Notes under the pieces: generated by a model
The model's input: the letters and a program-made list of their open reading frames with translations, nothing else
What the model was told of the DNA's origin: nothing
Databases searched by the model: none
Part shown: one piece after another, positions 23,782 to 39,238 of the stretch
Layout of the letters: the number at the start of each line of letters is the position of its first letter
Numbering within the stretch: position 1 is the first letter of the stretch
IMG/VR virus record: IMGVR_UViG_3300022181_000125
Location: 1-39,238 of that record
DNA length: 39,238 nucleotides
Origin: a virus
Lineage: Duplodnaviria; Caudoviricetes
Strand: one strand, 5' to 3'
Program-made: the position numbers and the translations under genes

Positions 23782-25026
23782 TCAGGTCTTGCTGTCCTCG
23801 CTGGCTGCCACGTCTGCATAGGAGTAGAGCAGACCATCTCGCTGGACAGAAACCTTGTCGCTAGATCCGACCTGTTCGATGTAGCGCTTGACGATAACAT
23901 CGCAGAACTTCTCATCGAGCTCAATGGTATTACAGGAGCGGTCAGACTGTTCACAGGCGATGAGTGTTGAACCGCTGCCACCAAAGGGATCGAGTACCAG
24001 GGTGTTGCTCATGCTGCTGTTCATAATCGGGTACGCCAAGAGCGGAACCGGCTTCATGGTCGGATGATCGCCGTTTTTCTTAGGCTTGTCGAACTCCCAG
24101 ATGGTGGTTTCCTTACGACCGGTGTACCACTGATGCTTTCCGGTTTTCTTCCACCCGTAGAGCACAGGCTCGTGCTGCCATTGATATGGAGAGCGTCCCA
24201 GAACCAGCGACTGTTTCTTCCAGATGCAGCAGCCGGACAAATAAAAACCGGCATCCACAAAGGCTCTCCTGAAATTCAGCCCTTCGGTGTCGGCGTGGAA
24301 TACATAGATGCTGGCGTCGTTTGCCATGACGGACGCGGTGTTTGTAAAAGCATCGAACAAAAAGTTGTAGAAGGCATCATTACCCATATTGTCGTTCTTG
24401 ATTTTTCCGGCGCTGCCTTCGTAGTTGACGTTGTAAGGCGGGTCGGTGATCACGAGATTGGCTTTGGCTCCAGCCATCAGCAAGTCAAATGTCTCTGCTT
24501 TGGTACTGTCGCCACATACCAGCCTGTGCCGGCCGAGTGTCCAGAGGTCATCGAGTTTGGTGATCGGCGGCTCCTTCAACTCTGCTTCCACATCAAAATC
24601 ATCATCGTGGATACCGTCTTTGATACTATCCTTAAACAGGTCATCCAGTTCAGCGGGGTCAAAGCCTGTGAGCGACACATCGAAGTCTGAACCCTGTAAA
24701 TCTGCAATGAGTAGAGCCAGCTTTTCTTTATCCCATTCACCGGAAATCTTGTTCAGTGCGATGTTGAGAGCCTTTTCCTTCTCAACATCCATCTCTACTA
24801 CCACGCACTCGACTTCGGTGATGCCCATGTCGATGAGCACCTTCAAACGCTGGTGCCCACCTACAACACAGCCTGTCACCTTGTTCCAGATGACCGGCTC
24901 GACGTATCCGAACTGTTCTATGGAGCGCTTTAGCTTATCGTATTCCGGATCGCCAGGCTTTAGGTCCTTGCGAGGATTGTAATCCGCAGGTAGAAGCTCG
25001 GCGGTATTCTTTTTCTCAATCAACAT
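23782..25026 (-). CDS. ParB-like domain fused to an N6/N4 DNA methyltransferase (beta class)
   Basis: YNPR...GGHQR ParB-like N-terminus; DPPY before HPTMKP and DPFGGSGST. Confidence 0.92.
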   Translation of the reverse strand: MLIEKKNTAELLPADYNPRKDLKPGDPEYDKLKRSIEQFGYVEPVIWNKVTGCVVGGHQRLKVLIDMGITEVECVVVEMDVEKEKALNIALNKISGEWDKEKLALLIADLQGSDFDVSLTGFDPAELDDLFKDSIKDGIHDDDFDVEAELKEPPITKLDDLWTLGRHRLVCGDSTKAETFDLLMAGAKANLVITDPPYNVNYEGSAGKIKNDNMGNDAFYNFLFDAFTNTASVMANDASIYVFHADTEGLNFRRAFVDAGFYLSGCCIWKKQSLVLGRSPYQWQHEPVLYGWKKTGKHQWYTGRKETTIWEFDKPKKNGDHPTMKPVPLLAYPIMNSSMSNTLVLDPFGGSGSTLIACEQSDRSCNTIELDEKFCDVIVKRYIEQVGSSDKVSVQRDGLLYSYADVAASEDSKT

Positions 25027-26179
25027 ATTTCTTTACCGCCTCCCGTAGTTCTTTATACCGGTCCAGCCATTCCCAGCGAGAGAGCGTTCCGCTGAAATGT
25101 CCGTAAGTTGCTGTATCAGCATAGATGGCGTCACGCAAACTCAGCGTTTCAATGATTGCTGCTGGACGCAGGTTAAACACATCAAGTACCGCCTTTCTGA
25201 GTACGTCATCCGGGACAGTCCCGGTGCCGAAGGTATCAATCTCAACCGCAACGGGGTCAGCCTTGCCAATGGCATAGGAGATGGCCACCTGACATTGTTT
25301 GGCATAATCACACCAGACGATGTTCTTTGCGATGGCTCTAGCCATGTAGGCACCGGAGCGGTCAACTTTCGTCGGGTCTTTACCGGAGAATGCGCCGCCT
25401 CCATGAGCAGCAAGACCGCCATAGCTATCGACCATAATCTTTCGACCGGTCAAACCGGTGTCGGCAGCAGGCCCGCCCTCGACAAAACGACCAGAAGGAT
25501 TGACGAGTATTTCGGTGTCATCATCAAATGGAAATTTCTCAAACACCGGCCACAGCACTTGGGAGATGATCTCACTACGGAGAACCTCCAAATCCTTATC
25601 AGCGCGGTGCTGTACAGAAACAATAATCGTTTTGATGCGCTTAGGCTTGTCATCCTCATACTCAACCGTGACCTGGGCTTTCCCATCAGAACCGATGCCT
25701 ATGATGACGCCACTTTTCATAGTGCTATCCAGCTTCCGACAAATGCTATGAGCGAATACGAGCGGAAGCGGGAGTTTTTCGGACGTCTCATCTGTGGCAT
25801 AGCCATAAACAGTGCCCTGGTCGCCAGCGCCAAGCATGGAATACCACGAAGTATCTCCGGCGCGGGATTCTAGCGCCTGATCCACACCACAAGCGATGTC
25901 CTTGCTTTGCTGGTGGACGAACACAAACACAATGAACTTCCATGGGTTGTAGCCGACGTCCTCAAGGACTCTGCGAACTACCCAGCGGATGTCCACCTTC
26001 TTCGAGCAGGTGATTTCGCCCGCTACGATGATTTTGCCTTTTGTGGCCATGACCTCGCAGGCCACGCGTGATGCTTTATCTTTGCGAAGACATGCATCGA
26101 GAATGCTGTCGGCAATCAGGTCGCAGAGTTTATCTGGGTGACCCTTGCAGACACTTTCAGAAGTTTTGTATTTTTCCAT
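25016..26179 (-). CDS. metK: S-adenosylmethionine synthetase
   Basis: SESV..GHPDK, GAGDQG, D.KAQV, GP.ADTGLTGRK, GGGAFSGKDPTKVDRS, YGHF. Confidence 0.95.
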   Translation of the reverse strand: MEKYKTSESVCKGHPDKLCDLIADSILDACLRKDKASRVACEVMATKGKIIVAGEITCSKKVDIRWVVRRVLEDVGYNPWKFIVFVFVHQQSKDIACGVDQALESRAGDTSWYSMLGAGDQGTVYGYATDETSEKLPLPLVFAHSICRKLDSTMKSGVIIGIGSDGKAQVTVEYEDDKPKRIKTIIVSVQHRADKDLEVLRSEIISQVLWPVFEKFPFDDDTEILVNPSGRFVEGGPAADTGLTGRKIMVDSYGGLAAHGGGAFSGKDPTKVDRSGAYMARAIAKNIVWCDYAKQCQVAISYAIGKADPVAVEIDTFGTGTVPDDVLRKAVLDVFNLRPAAIIETLSLRDAIYADTATYGHFSGTLSRWEWLDRYKELREAVKKYVD

Positions 26180-28065: not shown

Positions 28066-29449
28066 TTAATTGACTCTCATTTGCAGATCAGCTTTGACAG
28101 CATCGATTAGCGCCGACTGGCTTTTATCCTTTAAGGACAGAGCCCTCAAAACACGTTCATCAATCGTGCCTTTGGTAACGATGTGCTGCACCACAACCGT
28201 TTCAGCTGTTTGGCCTTGTCGCCAAAGCCTAGCATTTGTTTGTTGATATAACTCTAATGACCAGGTAAGACCGAACCAGACAATGCATGAGCCGCCGGCC
28301 TGAAGATTTAAGCCATGTCCTGCAGATGCGGGATGAATTAAACCAACCGGTATTTCCTTGTTGTTCCACCTTCGAATACTTTCAGCAGTATCCAACTTAG
28401 AAAATGAGACCTTTATGCTTTGAAGCTTTTCTAAGATTCTTTCGTAGTCGTGCTTATACCAATAGGCCACGAGTATTGGCTTTCCTGCAGATGCCTCAAT
28501 GATGTCCTCCAAGGCATCCAGCTTCTGATTATGGATGACTTCTGTTCCACCACTGTCGATATAAATGGCGCCGTTGGCCATCTGACAGAGCTTATTAGAA
28601 AGTGCCGCAGCATTTGCCGCTGTAACCTCACCACCAGGCAGCTCCAGGACAAGGTCTCTTGCTAATTCGTCGTAGCGTTTTGCCTCTTTTTCAGAAAGGA
28701 TAACCGTATGTTCACTGCTGATCAGCTCAGGCATCATCAGGTAATCCGTCGACTTCATGGAAATCGTAATGTCGGAGATTTTCTGGTAGATGCATTGCTC
28801 CGCTCCGGGAAGTGGCTTGTAGCTGAAAATGATCTGGCCATTTCTCTTATCCGGCATAAAGTAGTTACTGCGAAATGCAGTGATGAACCGTCCAAGCCTA
28901 GCGCCCATGTCCAGCAACTTAAACTCAGCCCATAAATCCATTAGACCATTGCTGCTCGGTGTTCCGGTCATACCAATCATGCGTTTTACTTTTGGGCGCA
29001 CCTTCATTAGTGACTTAAAGCGCTTAGCCTGATGATTTTTGAAGGAAGAAAGCTCATCGATAATGACCGTATCAAAATCAAACGACAGCCCGCTCTCATC
29101 AATAAGCCAGCAAAGATTTTCACGGTTTATGACATAGATATCTGCTGCCGCTTTTAACGCCCTAATCCGTTCAGCAGTGCTTCCTACTGCAACAGAAACA
29201 ATCAGGTCGGATAGATGATCCCATTTTTCGATTTCAGCTGGCCAGGTATCTCTTGCCACTCGAAGCGGGGCTACCACCAACACCTTGTGTGCATCGAAGT
29301 AATCAAACAGCAGGTTATTGATAGCAGTCAGGGCAATGCTTGTTTTACCTATTTCAGCCCAAGCCCATATCAAGTAAAATTGCTGACATGGGCTTGGATT
29401 CTATGAAATCAATTGCGTACTGTTGATACGCATGTGGTGTATATTTCAT
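28066..29449 (-). CDS. SNF2-family helicase interrupted by 10 nt in motif I (candidate ribosomal bypass; 457 aa if bypassed)
   Basis: ATG 29449 with GGAGG encodes MKYTPHAYQQYAIDFIESKPMSAILLDMGLG then TGA. KTSIALT resumes at 29346 in another frame. APLRVA, IIDELS, TGTP, SAGHGLNLQ and Q.NARLWRQGQ are intact. Confidence 0.9.
29347..29398 (-). other. Candidate recoding signal: 15-bp hairpin + GGC/TGA/AATA/GGT coding gap
   Basis: UCCAAGCCCAUGUCA (29398..29384) pairs with UGAUAUGGGCUUGGG (29372..29358); take-off GGC 29359..29357, stop 29356..29354, landing GGT 29349..29347. Confidence 0.65.
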
Positions 29450-29943
29450 TTTTGCATCACCTCCTCTTCTTCGATTCTTTTTAATTCGTTAATAAACCAA
29501 TTGATCTCCGCATGAAATTTGGCGTGCTCCGATTGCGATTTATAAACGCGGATATTGTTGATCCTGTTATTTCTCTTGTTGCCATCAATATGGTGGACAA
29601 CCTCACCGGTAATAAGTGGTCTTCCCAGAAACTCTTCTGCAACAACACGATGCTCATGTCTGCCATAATTTTTTGCATATGTTCTTCCTTCGCCTGAATT
29701 AAGGTGAGCATTCCTAATCTTTTCTCTTGTAGAAACCGTCATCCTTGTTGGATTCAATTGAAGATTTAAGTCATGCATGTTTTGGGAAATGTTGGTGTAA
29801 TCCTTTAAATCCATATAACGATCCGGATTCTTTTCCTTGCTACTAAAATCCGCAAAGCACTTTCTACTACAAAAATTGTGTGGCTTGATACGACTGCCAT
29901 ACCTTATTATGGGTTTGCCGCACCAGTCACAAATTAATCTCAT
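29446..29943 (-). CDS. Free-standing HNH homing-type endonuclease (N-terminal Cys4 zinc finger, NUMOD3-like motif, HNH_3)
   Basis: CDWC...FCSRKC; TREKIRNAH; HEHRVVAE..LGR.L...EVVHHIDGNKRNN...N......SEH...H; AT-richer than its neighbours and overlaps both. Confidence 0.88.
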   Translation of the reverse strand: MRLICDWCGKPIIRYGSRIKPHNFCSRKCFADFSSKEKNPDRYMDLKDYTNISQNMHDLNLQLNPTRMTVSTREKIRNAHLNSGEGRTYAKNYGRHEHRVVAEEFLGRPLITGEVVHHIDGNKRNNRINNIRVYKSQSEHAKFHAEINWFINELKRIEEEEVMQK

Positions 29944-30205
29944 CTAAAATCCCTCCAATCTGACTCGCATCGTCTAATATGAAAACTGAAAATCCTAATC
30001 CTCTAAGCAACTTGTGCCTTGCCATCTGTAATGGGCGTGGGCGCTTACCTTGAGCTTTGACCTCAACAAAGGCTATCTTTCCTTCAGGCAGTAGAACGAT
30101 TCGATCCGGCATACCATCAAAGCCTGGGGATACAAACTTCAACGCCAGCCCGCCGCGCTTTTTTGCTTTTAAAGTTAACTTCTTTTCAATCTCTTTTTCT
30201 CTCAT
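29927..30205 (-). CDS. VRR-NUC domain nuclease
   Basis: E..IE..L, KFVSPG..GMPDRIVL, FVEVK, PLQ, GF.V. Confidence 0.92.
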   Translation of the reverse strand: MREKEIEKKLTLKAKKRGGLALKFVSPGFDGMPDRIVLLPEGKIAFVEVKAQGKRPRPLQMARHKLLRGLGFSVFILDDASQIGGILDEINL

Positions 30206-33516: not shown

Positions 33517-33817
33517 ACTGAGTCAGGTTCTGTCTGAACTAAAGGACTGCGGACAAACCCTCATGAACATTGCGGACTCGCTTACTGAGCTTTTCTCAAG
33601 CACATCGGCCGGTCACAAAATTCCCGCTCCACCGACAGAGGAACCGAGACCAGCGTATTCATTTGTAGAGGTTCGGAAGAAGTTTGCAGAAATGTCCAGA
33701 GCCGGACACACAGACGCGCTTAAGGATCTGTTGAAAAAACACGGTGCAGACAAACTCTCCAGCATAGACCCGTCACAGTACGCCGCATTGCTTGCGGATG
33801 CGGAGGCAATTCAATGA
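33500..33817 (+). CDS. Conserved phage protein preceding DUF2800
   Basis: AAGGAGG RBS; VR..FA..SRAG.T..LK.LL.KHGA.KLS.ID...Y..LL.DA motif. Confidence 0.75.
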   Translation: MSKMSELSQVLSELKDCGQTLMNIADSLTELFSSTSAGHKIPAPPTEEPRPAYSFVEVRKKFAEMSRAGHTDALKDLLKKHGADKLSSIDPSQYAALLADAEAIQ

Positions 33818-34968
33818 GCGTAAAACACGCACTGCTTTCCGCATCGTCGGCACACCGTTGGATCTCATGTCCGCCATCAGCCCTACTTAGTAAGAAGTTC
33901 GACGATTCTTCAAGCAGCTTTGCACAGGAAGGCACCGATGCTCACACCCTCGCGCAGCACAAGCTGGAAAAATTGCTGGGACTTCCTACAAAGGACCCGA
34001 CTGAATCACTAAGCTTCTACTGTGAGGAAATGAACGATCACGCGGAAAATTATGCGGCCTTTGTGCTGGAACAAGTTGAGAAAACAAGGGAAACCTGCCT
34101 TGATCCTCAGGTACTAATTGAGCAGAAGCTCGATTTCTCAAGGTATGTCCCAGAAGGGTTTGGCCATGTGGACTGCCTGATTATCGCAGATGGCACACTT
34201 ACCGTAATTGACTATAAATACGGACTTGGGATCAAGGTTTCATCGGAAAGAAATCCGCAGATGTTCTGCTATGCGCTTGGCGGCTTGGCACTGTTCGATG
34301 GGATCTACGACATCGACAATGTTCGCCTGGTCATCTATCAGCCGCGCAGAGAAAACATTAGCGAGTACAGCATCTCAAAGAGCGAACTTATCCAGTGGGC
34401 TGAGGACGTCTTGTCTCCTACTGCACAACTTGCCAGCAAGGGCGAGGGCGAATATAAAGCAGGCGAGCATTGTCAGTTCTGTAAGGCCAAAGCAACTTGT
34501 AGGAAGCGTGCCGAATACAACCTGGAGCTTGCCAAGTACGACTTTGAGGTGCCGGCCACGCTCGATCACGATGAGATCGCAGCCATCCTGACAAAAGCAG
34601 ATGAACTGGTTTCTTGGGTAAGCGATGTTAAGGAATATGCATTGAAGGAAGCGCTAAACGGTACCAAGTTTGAAGGATTCAAATTAGTTGCCGGTCGGTC
34701 CAACAGGAAATACACAGACGAAGCTGCCGCAGCTGATCTCGTTATTGCAGCCGGTAAAGACCCCTACGAGAAGAAGCTACTCGGCATCACTGCTATGACA
34801 GCACTTCTCGGCAAAAAGGCATTTGAAGATATTCTCGGTGGCCTAACCTATAAGCCGCCTGGAAAACCGGTCCTTGTTACCGCTGATGACAAAAGGCCTG
34901 AATTTAACTCAGCATATGAAGATTTTGATGAAAATCAAGGAGGAAAAAATCATGACAAAGACAGTTAA
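33814..34968 (+). CDS. DUF2800 PD-(D/E)XK (Cas4-like) nuclease
   Basis: HALLSASSAHRW..C, EGT.AH, EQ, G..D, DYKYG, Q...YA, C.FC.....C. Confidence 0.9.
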   Translation: MSVKHALLSASSAHRWISCPPSALLSKKFDDSSSSFAQEGTDAHTLAQHKLEKLLGLPTKDPTESLSFYCEEMNDHAENYAAFVLEQVEKTRETCLDPQVLIEQKLDFSRYVPEGFGHVDCLIIADGTLTVIDYKYGLGIKVSSERNPQMFCYALGGLALFDGIYDIDNVRLVIYQPRRENISEYSISKSELIQWAEDVLSPTAQLASKGEGEYKAGEHCQFCKAKATCRKRAEYNLELAKYDFEVPATLDHDEIAAILTKADELVSWVSDVKEYALKEALNGTKFEGFKLVAGRSNRKYTDEAAAADLVIAAGKDPYEKKLLGITAMTALLGKKAFEDILGGLTYKPPGKPVLVTADDKRPEFNSAYEDFDENQGGKNHDKDS

Positions 34969-35515
34969 TCCATTGAAAGTAGTTACTGGCCCTGATACCC
35001 GCTGGAGCTATGTGAATGCGTGGGAGCCTAAATCCATTAATGGCGGCACGCCCAAGTACAGTGTATCTCTCATTATCCCTAAGTCCGACACCAAGACCAT
35101 CCAGAAAGTAAAAGCTGCAATAGAAGCAGCCTACCACGAAGGCGAAAGCAAGCTTAAAGGCAATGGCCGCAGCGTACCGCCTCTTACAACCCTTAAGACC
35201 CCACTTCGTGATGGTGATTCGGAACGTCCTGATGATCCCGTTTACGCCAACGCATACTTTGTAAATGCCAACAACAGCTCTGCCCCTGGCATCGTAGATG
35301 CCGATCGTCAGCCTATCCTCGAGCGCTCTGAGATTTATTCCGGAGTTTATGGTCGGGCCAGCGTGAACTTCTACGCATTCAACACCAACGGAAATAAGGG
35401 AATCGCGTGTTCTCTTAATAACCTTCAGAAGATCCGTGATGGCGAGCCTCTTGGCGGTAAGTCAAACGCTGAAGATGACTTTGCCACTGAGGATGATGAC
35501 GATTTTCTTTCCTAA
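34952..35515 (+). CDS. DUF2815 single-stranded DNA-binding-like protein
   Basis: RWSY...EP, KYS.SLIIPK, PLRDGD, YSG.Y, L.N.QK..DGE.LGG, acidic tail DDDDFLS; start at ATG 34952. Confidence 0.9.
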   Translation: MTKTVNPLKVVTGPDTRWSYVNAWEPKSINGGTPKYSVSLIIPKSDTKTIQKVKAAIEAAYHEGESKLKGNGRSVPPLTTLKTPLRDGDSERPDDPVYANAYFVNANNSSAPGIVDADRQPILERSEIYSGVYGRASVNFYAFNTNGNKGIACSLNNLQKIRDGEPLGGKSNAEDDFATEDDDDFLS

Positions 35516-35584
35516 CAGGTAACGGTCAATCAGGGTGGTAGAAAACCTACCACCCTAGACAATCAAAGAAATGAGGTAAATCAT

Positions 35585-35734
35585 ATGAAAACTTTTCTTG
35601 TAATCGAATTGTTTGTTATGTATCAGCTGTTTGTAATCGGATTTCTGGTTATGGTAGCCAAGGATGTGATTGGCAGCATCAAGAAGCACAAAAAGGAAAA
35701 AGCGAAGAACTTTGATCCACTCGATAAGTTTTAA
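35585..35734 (+). CDS. Small single-pass membrane protein (49 aa)
   Basis: Below the ORF-track cutoff; GAGG RBS; hydrophobic residues 4-25 followed by a Lys-rich tail. Confidence 0.55.
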   Translation: MKTFLVIELFVMYQLFVIGFLVMVAKDVIGSIKKHKKEKAKNFDPLDKF

Positions 35735-35740
35735 TCGCTT

Positions 35741-35776
35741 GGGCGGTGGCACTTCTGCTGCCGCCCTTATTTTTTT
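35741..35776 (+). terminator. Terminator-like hairpin just upstream of the DNA polymerase gene
   Basis: GGGCGGTGGCA-CTTC-TGCTGCCGCCC followed by TTATTTTTTT. Confidence 0.7.
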
Positions 35777-35790
35777 GAAAGGAGGATCTT

Positions 35791-37782
35791 ATGGAAGAGA
35801 TAAAATCACTGTCTCTTGACCTGGAAACCTACTCGGACGTGGACCTTGGCAAGTGCGGTGTTTATCGTTATGCGGAATCTCCACGCTTTGAAGTGCTCTT
35901 GTTTGGCTATGCAGTGAATGGCGGCAAGGTACACGTTATTGATCTGGCTTTAGGCGAGAAAATACCGGAAGAGATCGTGAACGCACTAACCGACGATACC
36001 ATAACAAAATGGGCTTTTAATGCTTCCTTCGAGCGGATCTGTTTATCCTATTGGCTTCGCAGGTACTGCCCAGATAAATTTTTCAGCTACAGCATCCAGG
36101 AGGACACGGTTGGAGCGTATCTTGACCCCTCTTCGTGGCGCTGCAGCATGATATGGTCTGCCTATATGGGCTTACCGCTTTCACTTGAAGGTGTGGGTGC
36201 AGTGCTGAAACTCGGCGAGCAAAAGTTAAAAGAAGGCAAAGACCTCATTCGCTACTTCTGTATTCCATGTAAGCCTACCATCGTCAATGGTGGCCGAACT
36301 CGAAACCTACCTGAACATGATATGACCAAATGGTCCCTATTTAAGAAGTACAATATCCGAGATGTCGAAGCGGAACAGGCCCTGAAGAAGCGCTTAGAAA
36401 GCTATCCGGTACCTGAGTTTGTTTGGGATGAATACCATCTGGATCAGGAGATTAATGACAGAGGTATTCTGCTTGATATGGGCGTCGTTAAAAATGCCAT
36501 CATCATCGATGAGAAATCCAAAGAAGAAATCACTGCCGCCATGAGGGAGCGTACCAACCTTGATAATCCAAATAGCGTCCTGCAGGTAAAACAGTGGCTT
36601 TCTGATAGCGGAATAGAAACCGAGTCTCTTGGCAAAAAGAATGTCGCAGCCCTTATAAAGACGGTACCTGAGGATCAACGTGACGTGCTTCTCCTTCGCC
36701 AGCAGCTTGCAAAAAGCAGCATCAAAAAATATCAGGCCATGCGAAATACCGTCTGCACGGATGGCAGGGCTCGCGGCATGTTTCAATATTTCGGTGCTTC
36801 CCGTTCTGGTCGCTGGGCAGGCAGGCATATACAATTGCAAAACCTTCCTCAGAATCATCTCCCTGATTTGGAAGATGCACGGTCCCTTGTTAAGCTAGGA
36901 GATTATGATGCCGTAAAACTTCTTTATGATGATGTGCCGGATACCCTCTCTCAGCTTATCCGCACTGCTTTTATTCCTAAGCCAGGACACAAATTTATTG
37001 TGTGCGACTTCAGTGCGATCGAGGCTAGAGTTCTATCTTTTTTAGCCGGGGAAAAATGGCGACTAGATGTATTTGAAAACGATGGTGATATCTACTGCGC
37101 TTCTGCTTCTGCTATGTTTCATGTACCGGTTGAGAAGCATGGTGTGAACAGCCATCTTCGTCAAAAGGGAAAAATCGCAGAATTGGCTCTTGGATATGGC
37201 GGCAGCACCGGTGCCCTCAAGGCTATGGGAGCGCTAGACATGGGCCTTACTGAAGACGAATTGCAGCCGCTGGTTGATTCTTGGAGAACTTCGAACCCCA
37301 ACATCACGAAGCTTTGGTGGGATGTTGATAGGACCGTTAAAGAGGCGGTTCGCTTACGAACACATACTAAAACACATGGCATTAAATTCTACTACCAAAA
37401 GGGAATGCTGTTTATTGAGCTTCCTTCCGGCAGGAGGCTCTCCTATGTAAAGCCCAAGATCGAACCAAACCAGTTCGGTGGCGAGTCGGTTACCTACGAA
37501 GGCACCGGAAACACAAAAAAATGGGAACGCATCGAAAGTTACGGTCCAAAATTCGTTGAAAATATCGTCCAAGCCATAAGTAGAGATATCCTGGCCTACG
37601 CCATGAAAGCACTCCGTCACTGCTTTATCTGTGGACATGTCCATGACGAACTAATTATCGAATCCAGCATGGGCGTTTCCCTTGACGCCGTTTGTGAACA
37701 GATGGGAAGAACACCACCTTGGATCAAAGGTTTAGCACTTAGAGCCGACGGCTATGAAACCATGTTTTATAAGAAAGATTAA
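35791..37782 (+). CDS. Phage family A DNA polymerase with 3'-5' exonuclease
   Basis: DLET, AFNASFE, YN..D exonuclease motifs; SGRW, QLQN, DFSAIEAR motif A, R..GK...LALGYG motif B, HVHDE motif C. Confidence 0.95.
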   Translation: MEEIKSLSLDLETYSDVDLGKCGVYRYAESPRFEVLLFGYAVNGGKVHVIDLALGEKIPEEIVNALTDDTITKWAFNASFERICLSYWLRRYCPDKFFSYSIQEDTVGAYLDPSSWRCSMIWSAYMGLPLSLEGVGAVLKLGEQKLKEGKDLIRYFCIPCKPTIVNGGRTRNLPEHDMTKWSLFKKYNIRDVEAEQALKKRLESYPVPEFVWDEYHLDQEINDRGILLDMGVVKNAIIIDEKSKEEITAAMRERTNLDNPNSVLQVKQWLSDSGIETESLGKKNVAALIKTVPEDQRDVLLLRQQLAKSSIKKYQAMRNTVCTDGRARGMFQYFGASRSGRWAGRHIQLQNLPQNHLPDLEDARSLVKLGDYDAVKLLYDDVPDTLSQLIRTAFIPKPGHKFIVCDFSAIEARVLSFLAGEKWRLDVFENDGDIYCASASAMFHVPVEKHGVNSHLRQKGKIAELALGYGGSTGALKAMGALDMGLTEDELQPLVDSWRTSNPNITKLWWDVDRTVKEAVRLRTHTKTHGIKFYYQKGMLFIELPSGRRLSYVKPKIEPNQFGGESVTYEGTGNTKKWERIESYGPKFVENIVQAISRDILAYAMKALRHCFICGHVHDELIIESSMGVSLDAVCEQMGRTPPWIKGLALRADGYETMFYKKD

Positions 37783-38110: not shown

Positions 38111-39238
38111 TTAGCCTGTTATGTTGGCTTGCCCATTCATAAGAATTGGGAGTAGCCACTCTCTGAAGGCGATGAGCTGCTGAGACTCTCGGGTATTTTC
38201 AGAAATCAACTCCAGATATGGCTGGACAATGCTATTAAAATACTCAAGTTCATGATCAAGCGGTATATAAATTGGCCTGTCTTTAAGAAGTGGTTTTTGC
38301 AAATGCTTAAGTCCGGTTCCCTGGAAAAACTTTTTATCTAGCTCAGGCTTTATGCTCTCTAAAAACATATAAAGATAGTCAGATAACAAGTCGGTCCCGG
38401 TAATACACCATGTGTCTGTTGAATATGCAGCCTTACCTACGTAAAACTTTATATCCGCATTCCCACCAGTGTTTAAATAACAGTTCCTTCCATCAACGAC
38501 CGGCTCATACCACGTTAAGATAGCATCCCCGCTTGTAAAAAATGGGTAGTTTCCATCTTTGCCCTTTGCTTCACCAACTTGTATAGTTGATTTTGGGTTT
38601 TCGATAATAATATCTTCAAGTTTCCCATTATAAGTCTTGTCGAAAAATAGATGCATAAATATTTCATATGCCATCAACTGTAAATGTTCCTTTGTTTTGT
38701 TATTACACATTATTTTTTTATCAAGTGAAGATAAAATACTAACTAATTTGTCTTGATACTCTTTCTTAGGTATTTTGAACTTTAGTGACATGAGATATTC
38801 AAGATTAATATTATCTTGAATGCTTCCACTAGCTGCATTTTGTATGGAATTTCGAATGTATTCGAAAAGATAATGCATGAATAATTCAGAAGTTTCCTTC
38901 TGATAAGCTTGAAAACCAACAACACTATCAGGGAAACACATGGGGTAATCAAGTATCGCAGTCTCTGCAATATTCGCAGCGATTGTGATGCATAGTGTTC
39001 CTGCATCCCACAGTTTACTCTGTTTTAATCCGAAGTCATTATATAGCTGTGTGTGTTTAGTTAAATATAAATTAGCAGCTTTTATTTCTCCAGTTTGAAC
39101 TAATGGATACTTACCATTGTCAAATAAACGTGGGTCGTTGCGTGGTCTGTGTTTTGAAATACCTCGAGAAAACTTACCCAGTTCATCTAACTTTTTAGTA
39201 TCCCAATCTTGATTATATCTGCCTCCATTATATATCAT
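38111..39238 (-). CDS. hsdS: Type I restriction-modification specificity subunit
   Basis: Two TRD-like regions (W..KKL.EL; KLEDI), IP..EYQ.K...LS.LD.KI..N central helix, LLP.LM.GQ C-terminus; the start is at the window edge. Confidence 0.9.
   Translation of the reverse strand: MIYNGGRYNQDWDTKKLDELGKFSRGISKHRPRNDPRLFDNGKYPLVQTGEIKAANLYLTKHTQLYNDFGLKQSKLWDAGTLCITIAANIAETAILDYPMCFPDSVVGFQAYQKETSELFMHYLFEYIRNSIQNAASGSIQDNINLEYLMSLKFKIPKKEYQDKLVSILSSLDKKIMCNNKTKEHLQLMAYEIFMHLFFDKTYNGKLEDIIIENPKSTIQVGEAKGKDGNYPFFTSGDAILTWYEPVVDGRNCYLNTGGNADIKFYVGKAAYSTDTWCITGTDLLSDYLYMFLESIKPELDKKFFQGTGLKHLQKPLLKDRPIYIPLDHELEYFNSIVQPYLELISENTRESQQLIAFREWLLPILMNGQANITG

Follow-up and report, generated by a model that had tools for sequence, protein, structure and literature searches.

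How can a phage keep a SNF2 helicase gene in service when its reading frame is broken inside motif I, and what is a gene for an HNH endonuclease doing directly in front of it? In the window, by which we mean the whole analysed stretch of 39,238 nucleotides of a Caudoviricetes virus (IMG/VR record IMGVR_UViG_3300022181_000125), the helicase frame runs from the ATG at 29449 through DMGLG into a TGA at 29356, and the K-T of the same motif resumes 10 bases further on in a different frame. The first-pass annotation had proposed that nuclease gene and gap form a homing cassette in which the gap protects the element's own DNA and bypassing by the ribosome rescues the protein.

The interrupted helicase gene and the HNH gene

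On the minus strand the gene order is primase, VRR-NUC, HNH endonuclease and SNF2 helicase (Table 1). As annotated at first, the HNH gene lies between VRR-NUC and helicase, overlaps the VRR-NUC gene by 17 nt, holds the helicase ribosome-binding site (RBS; GGAGGTGA, 29464-29457) in its last codons and shares with the helicase an ATGA stop/start at 29449-29446; the insert (29356-29347) begins 93 nt past the helicase ATG, between DMGLG and KT. Helicase motifs II (DELS), III, V and VI are intact in ORF2, and a single tblastn match indicates one SNF2 copy in the 39-kb genome. The gap is no assembly error, as an independent contig (L002/L322) contains a gap of the same length and a contig from an RNA library crosses the gap unchanged. 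Elsewhere in the window, genes for DUF2800, ssDNA-binding and DNA polymerase A proteins (33814-37782, plus) lie on the strand opposite to the primase-helicase block, a gene for a type I restriction specificity subunit (38111-39238) follows the DNA polymerase A region, and SAM synthetase and DNA methylase genes are located between the small and large terminase genes (23782-26179, minus).

Table 1. Features of the helicase locus in the window
Feature	Position	Strand	Basis and remarks
Primase	32596-30344	minus	
VRR-NUC gene	29927..30205	minus	Pfam VRR_NUC; upstream host flank, only its last codons within the cassette
Whole mobile cassette, 597 bp	29347..29943	minus	HNH gene, RBS, replacement helicase N-terminus and coding gap
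HNH endonuclease gene, free-standing, 165 aa	29446..29943	minus	Pfam HNH_3, E=8e-12; PHROG HNH families
Helicase RBS GGAGGTGA	29457..29464	minus	Cassette-supplied; within the last HNH codons, 7 nt 5' of the helicase ATG
ATGA, helicase start and HNH stop	29449-29446	minus	Sequence
SNF2 helicase ORF1, from the Q motif through DMGLG, 31 codons	29357..29449	minus	Element-borne replacement N-terminus; 69% nt identity to empty relative
RNA hairpin, 16 bp	29358..29398	minus	Folding; 5' arm 29398-29383, 3' arm 29373-29358; 3' end at take-off codon
Coding gap, 10 nt, GGC-TGA-AATA-GGT	29347..29356	minus	Take-off GGC 29359-29357; TGA 29356-29354; landing GGT 29349-29347
SNF2 helicase ORF2, beginning with K-T of motif I, 426 codons	28066..29346	minus	Pfam SNF2/Helicase_C

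The HNH protein combines an N-terminal Cys4 finger with an intact active-site motif (HHIDGNKRNN), whose H and N residues are invariant among 45 aligned relatives. The zinc finger of the first-pass annotation is borne out by its four cysteines, (nearly) invariant in the same alignment, although the profile matches to it are weak (treble-clef/TRASH/zf-FCS, E 0.06-2.7), and the noted AT-richness holds as a tendency (GC 38.6% against 46.5% for the genome) that has to be called mild because 7.7% of 498-nt windows are as low in GC. A NUMOD3-like motif, which had also been named, is not confirmed, as Pfam gave no match to it at E<=10. The structure model has a pLDDT of 89, and with it Foldseek returned no match at E<=0.001, hence none of significance to a characterised homing enzyme; the sequence found nothing in the PDB at E<=10. 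Weak fold matches include I-HmuI (1u3e, E=0.97), and the HNH_3 core points in the same direction, to the I-HmuI/I-BasI-type HNH nicking homing endonucleases, which are intron-encoded and from which the window protein differs by the Cys4 finger preceding its core and by the lack of a significant structural match. The gene presents itself as a candidate free-standing homing endonuclease, being an optional ORF with an intact nuclease motif that adjoins a conserved gene, is patchily distributed among close relatives and is inherited together with a flank. A group I intron or intein does not describe it, as the HNH is an ORF of its own upstream of the helicase start and the intervening sequence comprises 10 nt.

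Boundaries and distribution of the cassette

Where does the element begin and end? Six relatives whose helicases are 91-96% identical to that of the window (L323, L324, L326, L327, L328 and L402) lack both the HNH gene and the gap, and the ATG that opens the HNH gene in the window is the ATG that opens the helicase in these empty alleles. Identity to them is ~90% through the VRR-NUC gene as far as 29944, drops to ~69% across the first 31 helicase codons and stands at ~88% (87-89%) right after the gap. From this pattern it follows that the element extends from 29943 to 29347 and carries its own helicase N-terminus; HNH gene and gap are missing as one block from the empty relatives, at exactly the boundaries given in the first-pass annotation. 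Across 20 close gap/intact pairs, hand-picked and not independent, the median identity of ORF1 is 0.69 as compared to 0.83 just downstream, whereby ORF1 may vary more in any case. In a comparison of 28 gap alleles that carries a best-of-many bias, ORF1 was nearer to a distant gap allele than to its own intact partner in 17, less near in 6 and tied in 5. That ORF1 tracks the HNH gene rather than the helicase is not supported by distance matrices of 20 HNH-bearing gap alleles (rho 0.29 versus 0.46).

The RBS signature GGTGAYGC is found in 91 of 118 gap alleles and in 4 of 180 intact alleles, and of the gap alleles lacking the HNH gene 63 of 81 have it. Since HNH-less gap alleles share the RBS of the cassette, most of them are probably its descendants. 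ORF1 starts mostly with MKFIPH in gap alleles and with M(K/Q)YNPH in intact alleles. An exception among the HNH-less alleles is L132, which has a hairpin-plus-gap patch like that of the window and neither HNH gene nor cassette RBS. Loss of the HNH gene by simple microhomology deletion could not be shown, the VRR-NUC end being remodelled in HNH-less alleles.

How tightly are nuclease and gap linked? Among the best 80 HNH relatives in IMG/VR, 6 have no adjacent helicase; of the remaining 74, many of them near-duplicate loci, 62 have a gap in motif I and 12 an intact motif, and the best-ranked 27 all have the gap. Gaps linked to the HNH reach helicase families only 21-28% identical to that of the window and always affect P-loop codons, after either Gly. 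The same HNH family accompanies a gap in four unrelated helicase families and thus follows the codons of motif I across distant helicases, which is in line with the earlier proposal of homing to codons of conserved motifs. In VRR-NUC-adjacent lineages that have the HNH and no gap, the motif itself is changed in 6 of 7 (ECGLG twice, DCGLG, AMGMG, DLGLG, GLGMG), as compared to 22 of 117 intact alleles without HNH. A nuclease with the DMG codons as its target would select for such changes, which makes them an indirect argument for this target. Counting against the homing model, one lineage (L044-L048) combines the HNH with an unbroken motif, and in the distant L069, L077 and L079 the motif is also unbroken.

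The association holds in one direction only. Pattern scans for 120 gap and 120 intact loci, from which loci with less than 900 nt upstream or without a helicase match were dropped, revealed the HNH at 11 of 77 gap loci, leaving 66 HNH-less, and at none of 59 intact loci. A sample drawn by helicase similarity and blind to the junction comprised 160 fetched loci, of which 152 were scored; 19 of the 152, about one in eight, contained a gap, and the HNH stood beside 2 of these 19 and was absent from 17. Scan estimates of ~410 gap and ~4200 intact stretches give a similar share, the two patterns differing slightly. The proposed co-inheritance therefore applies insofar as the HNH implies the gap, but the gap does not imply the HNH, and the hairpin, supposed to travel with the insert, is missing from most gap alleles. 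A tree of the downstream protein with 265 tips, from a sample enriched for gap alleles, shows 58 changes of the gap state, as compared to a mean of 82 and a minimum of 72 after shuffling, indicating that the gap was gained or lost many times. A frameshifted HNH gene lies beside a 4-nt gap in Ruminococcus phage NatCom_23091 (Ca. Heliusvirales; L001:2806-3286 and L038-L040), where, judging by the frameshift, the nuclease appears to be decaying while the gap is kept. Furthermore, HNH-less gap alleles (L426, L448, L456, L461) occur in bacterial isolates, for example in Succiniclasticum ruminis DSM 9236 and Clostridium algidicarnis DSM 15099.

Probable decoding of the gap

What rules do the gaps obey? 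A census with a pattern that did not demand a stop codon yielded 238 matches, 62 of them in helicases and 57 unique. Of these unique gaps, 53 open with a stop codon and 4 are stop-less, and all 57 follow a GGT or GGC take-off codon, while GGA or GGG is used at this place in 63 of 203 intact alleles. None of the 57 is shorter than 4 nt, none has 3 nt and none amounts to an in-frame sense insertion. Gap length is 4-10 nt, rarely 1, 16 or 17 nt, and the gaps are spread over all three frames (38/43/51 of 132), so that only a frame-independent mechanism unifies them. The landing triplet is GGC or GGT in 19 of the 57, matches in two of three positions in 37 (GGA, AGY, GAC) and in one of three in a single case (AGA). 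In the window take-off and landing codon are matched (GGC/GGT), as they are in phage S4-5 (CTT/CTT), and the TGA stands directly after the take-off codon, as in programmed bypassing. A bias for pyrimidines at the last position of the gap is weak evidence because this base could be a remnant of the original codon. Taken together, ribosomal hopping fits the gap data best, with the many unmatched landing codons, the four stop-less gaps and the lack of a general hairpin speaking against it. The first Gly of the motif is encoded by GGC in 111 of 118 unique gap alleles (29 of 30 where the loci were not chosen by pattern) as compared to 36 of 203 intact alleles, an excess that may go back to common descent, a substitution conferring immunity or a signal to the ribosome. 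Stop-less variants include gaps of 17 nt and 16 nt after a Gly or Pro codon (L018, L053), and in L028 a one-base CTT-C insert resembles a +1 frameshift site. When metagenomes were scanned by pattern, chance matches prevailed, and 5 of the 118 loci were helicases.

The hairpin of the window is strong (-24.5 kcal/mol, z about -4 to -6). As a signal of the whole family it had to be rejected, since z<-2 is reached by 9 of 132 gap and 10 of 203 intact alleles, and folding windows that extend through the landing codon gave the same picture. Hairpins with z<-4 are found in 4 of 9 gaps of at least 9 nt, in 1 of 123 shorter gaps and in 1 of 203 intact alleles, the strong long-gap hairpins representing two or three lineages only, with both arms changed in L024. 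A 3' barrier structure was not found by folding of gap alleles. By analogy, the hairpin may aid longer hops, which would be in line with the 'driver' role that, in the excerpted text of a recent preprint, is proposed for pairing in the mRNA leaving the ribosome (10.1101/2024.12.09.627546). The alleles with long gap and strong hairpin lack the K-F pair of the usual ORF1 start (MKYTPH in the window, MIYEPH in L132, MRFVPH in L024), hinting that nascent peptide and hairpin may stand in for each other.

Is the helicase behind the gap still made, and if so, by which route? ORF2 is complete in 103 of the 106 alleles with a gap and in 163 of the 166 intact ones, and ORF1 is open over 24 codons in all 132 gap alleles. 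Among gap alleles the median dN/dS amounts to 0.035 where the HNH is lacking (14 pairs) and to 0.044 where it is present (5 pairs), as compared to 0.057 in 62 intact pairs, pairs sharing members, and one and the same gap persists among HNH-less alleles at dS up to ~0.8. Directly behind the gap, conservation of the residues equals that of intact alleles, whereby the Lys was required by the filter and most loci stem from a pattern demanding K-T; the Thr, encoded by all four of its codons, is present in 43 of 44 gap alleles that were not chosen by pattern, and no restart codon is common to the alleles. The protein behind the gap is under purifying selection and therefore must be decoded somehow; from the conservation of the alleles it seems very probable that some route leads to a functional helicase. 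Several gaps are Shine-Dalgarno-like (TAAGGA, TAGGA), ORF2 shares its frame with a TTG at 29373 and annotators call a truncated helicase, which would suit a dead gene or one made in two pieces, with the gap as an escape mutation and ORF2 restarting at a downstream or upstream start codon. Given a dN/dS of ~0.04 and the conserved residues behind the gap, this is very improbable; moreover, the first in-frame start codon varies widely in position, ORF1 stays open throughout, and the TTG is buried in the hairpin without an RBS. A shade less probable still is removal of the gap from the RNA by micro-splicing or polymerase skipping, even though precise excision would likewise restore any gap length. 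Group I and II introns are far longer than the 4-10 nt at issue. The gap is present unchanged in the RNA-library contig X6 (29107-29511, depth 3.9), and contigs of 7 RNA runs, which look like a single 2018 campaign, contain no joint with the gap removed; this is a weak argument against splicing, as cover is patchy at a depth of 2-6, which makes the uncovered parts uninformative, and DNA carry-over is possible. In three of the runs RNA contigs end at 29356, 29357 and 29363 and one starts at 29355, where the DNA run X1, possibly the source of the window sequence, continues past; this faintly suggests that reverse transcription halts at the foot of the hairpin or that the RNA is cleaved at the stop codon.

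Single alleles could be accounted for by conventional frameshifting (+1 or -1) or by readthrough of the stop, which would lengthen the P-loop by one to four residues: the 4-nt gaps GGT-TGAC and GGT-TAGC land poorly and might represent a +1 shift at the stop codon, 6-nt gaps preserve the frame, and the CTT-C insert of L028 is typical of +1 shifting. For the family as a whole this is distinctly unlikely, since a single site would need three separate mechanisms and the window allele a shift plus three extra residues; longer P-loops seem not to be tolerated, as 3-nt gaps and in-frame sense insertions are lacking among the 57 unique gaps. A different kind of alternative accepts the hop but not the immunity. 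The gap would then spread on its own as an element of recoding or regulation, or as an allele that resists the drive, and the HNH would ride beside it, protected by substitutions in the N-terminus. Such an independent gap would explain that most gap alleles are HNH-less and persist over long branches (dS ~0.8), that in L132 hairpin and gap form a patch of their own without HNH or cassette RBS, and that HNH-less alleles show a remodelled VRR-NUC end instead of a plain deletion scar. We consider it rather unlikely, because the cassette RBS occurs in 63 of 81 HNH-less gap alleles, the MKFIPH-type N-terminus is common to gap alleles, and one HNH family brings the gap to four unrelated helicase families.

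A proposed homing model and its relation to known bypassing systems

The explanation that we prefer unites homing, immunity by the gap and a ribosomal hop, and as a whole we regard it as reasonably probable. The cassette has taken the place of the first 31 codons in the SNF2 helicase gene of the phage. The HNH likely nicks the intact motif I DNA of co-infecting phages, and repair would then copy the cassette into them, while the 10-nt gap likely destroys the HNH target and so spares the element's own DNA. During translation the ribosome likely pauses at the stop codon; with this codon in the A site, peptidyl-tRNA-Gly would leave the take-off Gly codon and re-pair at the last triplet of the gap, in the window the matched GGT, giving rise to full-length helicase. 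HNH-less gap alleles are likely remnants of the cassette, or else variants that resist the nuclease and spread in its absence. The steps that we infer are nicking and where it occurs, immunity through the gap, hopping and its efficiency, and the help of the hairpin in long gaps. As ORF1 differs at ~30% of its bases, the replaced N-terminus could confer immunity instead of the gap or together with it.

Cultured phages contain comparable pairs. In Bacillus phage Carmen17 the HNH is accompanied by a 10-nt gap (GGT-TGA-CGTA-GGC), both of which are missing from Wes44, and the two phages share 96% identity in their ORF2 proteins; the helicase of Carmen17 is annotated without motif I. Both phages were isolated on B. 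thuringiensis DSM-350, Carmen17 by plating in spite of this annotated lack, and their announcement is silent on the break (PMC6430321). A hairpin predicted for Carmen17 (L722:2250-2294, z about -2.5) takes in take-off codon, gap and landing codon and is closer to the T4 take-off stem-loop than the hairpin of the window. S4-5 and S4-4 constitute a second pair of cassette and empty phage, the gap of S4-5 being a matched Leu version (CTT-TAA-ATC-CTT). Paenibacillus phage Pd_22F has the HNH and a 5-nt gap, and Corynebacterium phage StAB the HNH and an unbroken but changed motif.

The T4 MobA/gene 60 element was reportedly treated by Bonocora et al. 2011, as cited by Manning and Atkins. In the excerpted text of the latter, where the MobA element is described together with the 50-nt bypass of gene 60, several traits recur that are seen here: a free-standing HNH, a Gly take-off codon followed by a stop, a gap at the 3' end of the element, an element-borne replacement N-terminus (NTE/HomR in T4) before the gap, frequent loss of the HNH with the gap kept, and insertion in many lineages (Manning and Atkins, bioRxiv 10.1101/2022.08.31.505936). 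Measured against T4 as excerpted, the target here is motif I of an SNF2 helicase instead of the topoisomerase large-subunit gene, which is split in two in T4, whereas in the window a mere 31 codons replace the native start and the host gene is not divided into two proteins. The nuclease is set apart by its length (165 aa versus 269-279 aa for MobA), and the gap is variable at 4-10 nt, with GGT/GGC take-off and often unmatched landing, in contrast to ~50 nt and matched GGA codons in T4. The hairpin is optional here, and the named hosts are mostly Bacillota as compared to Gammaproteobacteria for the T4 type. Because of the other target, the shorter nuclease and the far shorter, variable gap, the cassette is not a member of the MobA/gene 60 element despite its similar working. 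Low-level resumption without pairing is described for T4 in the excerpts of a further preprint (10.1101/2024.12.09.627546).

Other systems share single traits. The gene for the terminase in Streptomyces phage Hau3 is likewise a phage ATPase gene with a 10-nt gap, a nearby stem-loop and a slow A-site codon, but its trigger is a rare UUA, its proposed role regulatory, and the main text does not contain the words HNH, homing or helicase (Antonov et al. 2023, PMC10732093). According to excerpts of a 2016 review, matched codons flank the stop in synthetic E. coli stop-hops, and the byps of Magnusiomyces mitochondria tolerate two-of-three landing but are 27-55 nt long, mitochondrial and unconnected with a nuclease gene; the same excerpts state that no natural in-frame stop-hop was known and that shorter counterparts had long been presumed (PMC5009743). 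The excerpted part of PMC10448857 adds nothing on bypassing, and searches of open-licence PMC and bioRxiv texts, of which preprint supplements could list related cases, yielded no description of gaps in motif I of phage helicases. What is added here is the one-way association, the exact boundaries of the element, the selection data, the take-off and landing census and the cultured pair.

Few cases of natural bypassing are established, T4 gene 60 with its homologues and the genes of Magnusiomyces mitochondria, and for the Hau3 terminase it is supported. Well over 100 alleles found in nature, whose gaps measure 4-10 nt and cover every frame, provide a series from which the minimal needs of a hop, the tolerance for landing mismatch and the need for a hairpin can be read, and in the cassette a homing nuclease would be paired with a recoded gap for a second time and independently. 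By implication, many helicases of phages and prophages that at present carry the label of truncated genes or pseudogenes would be functional, and with Carmen17 and Wes44, which share a common host, the claims for hop and homing are both testable. More tentatively, and at a little under an even chance, short stop-hops may be a common form of natural decoding, used by about a tenth of the SNF2 family with 4-10 bases skipped, mostly without hairpin or matched landing codon; the gap would then be a minimal substitute for an intron that lets a nuclease drive into conserved ATPase codons and outlives it as a resistance allele.
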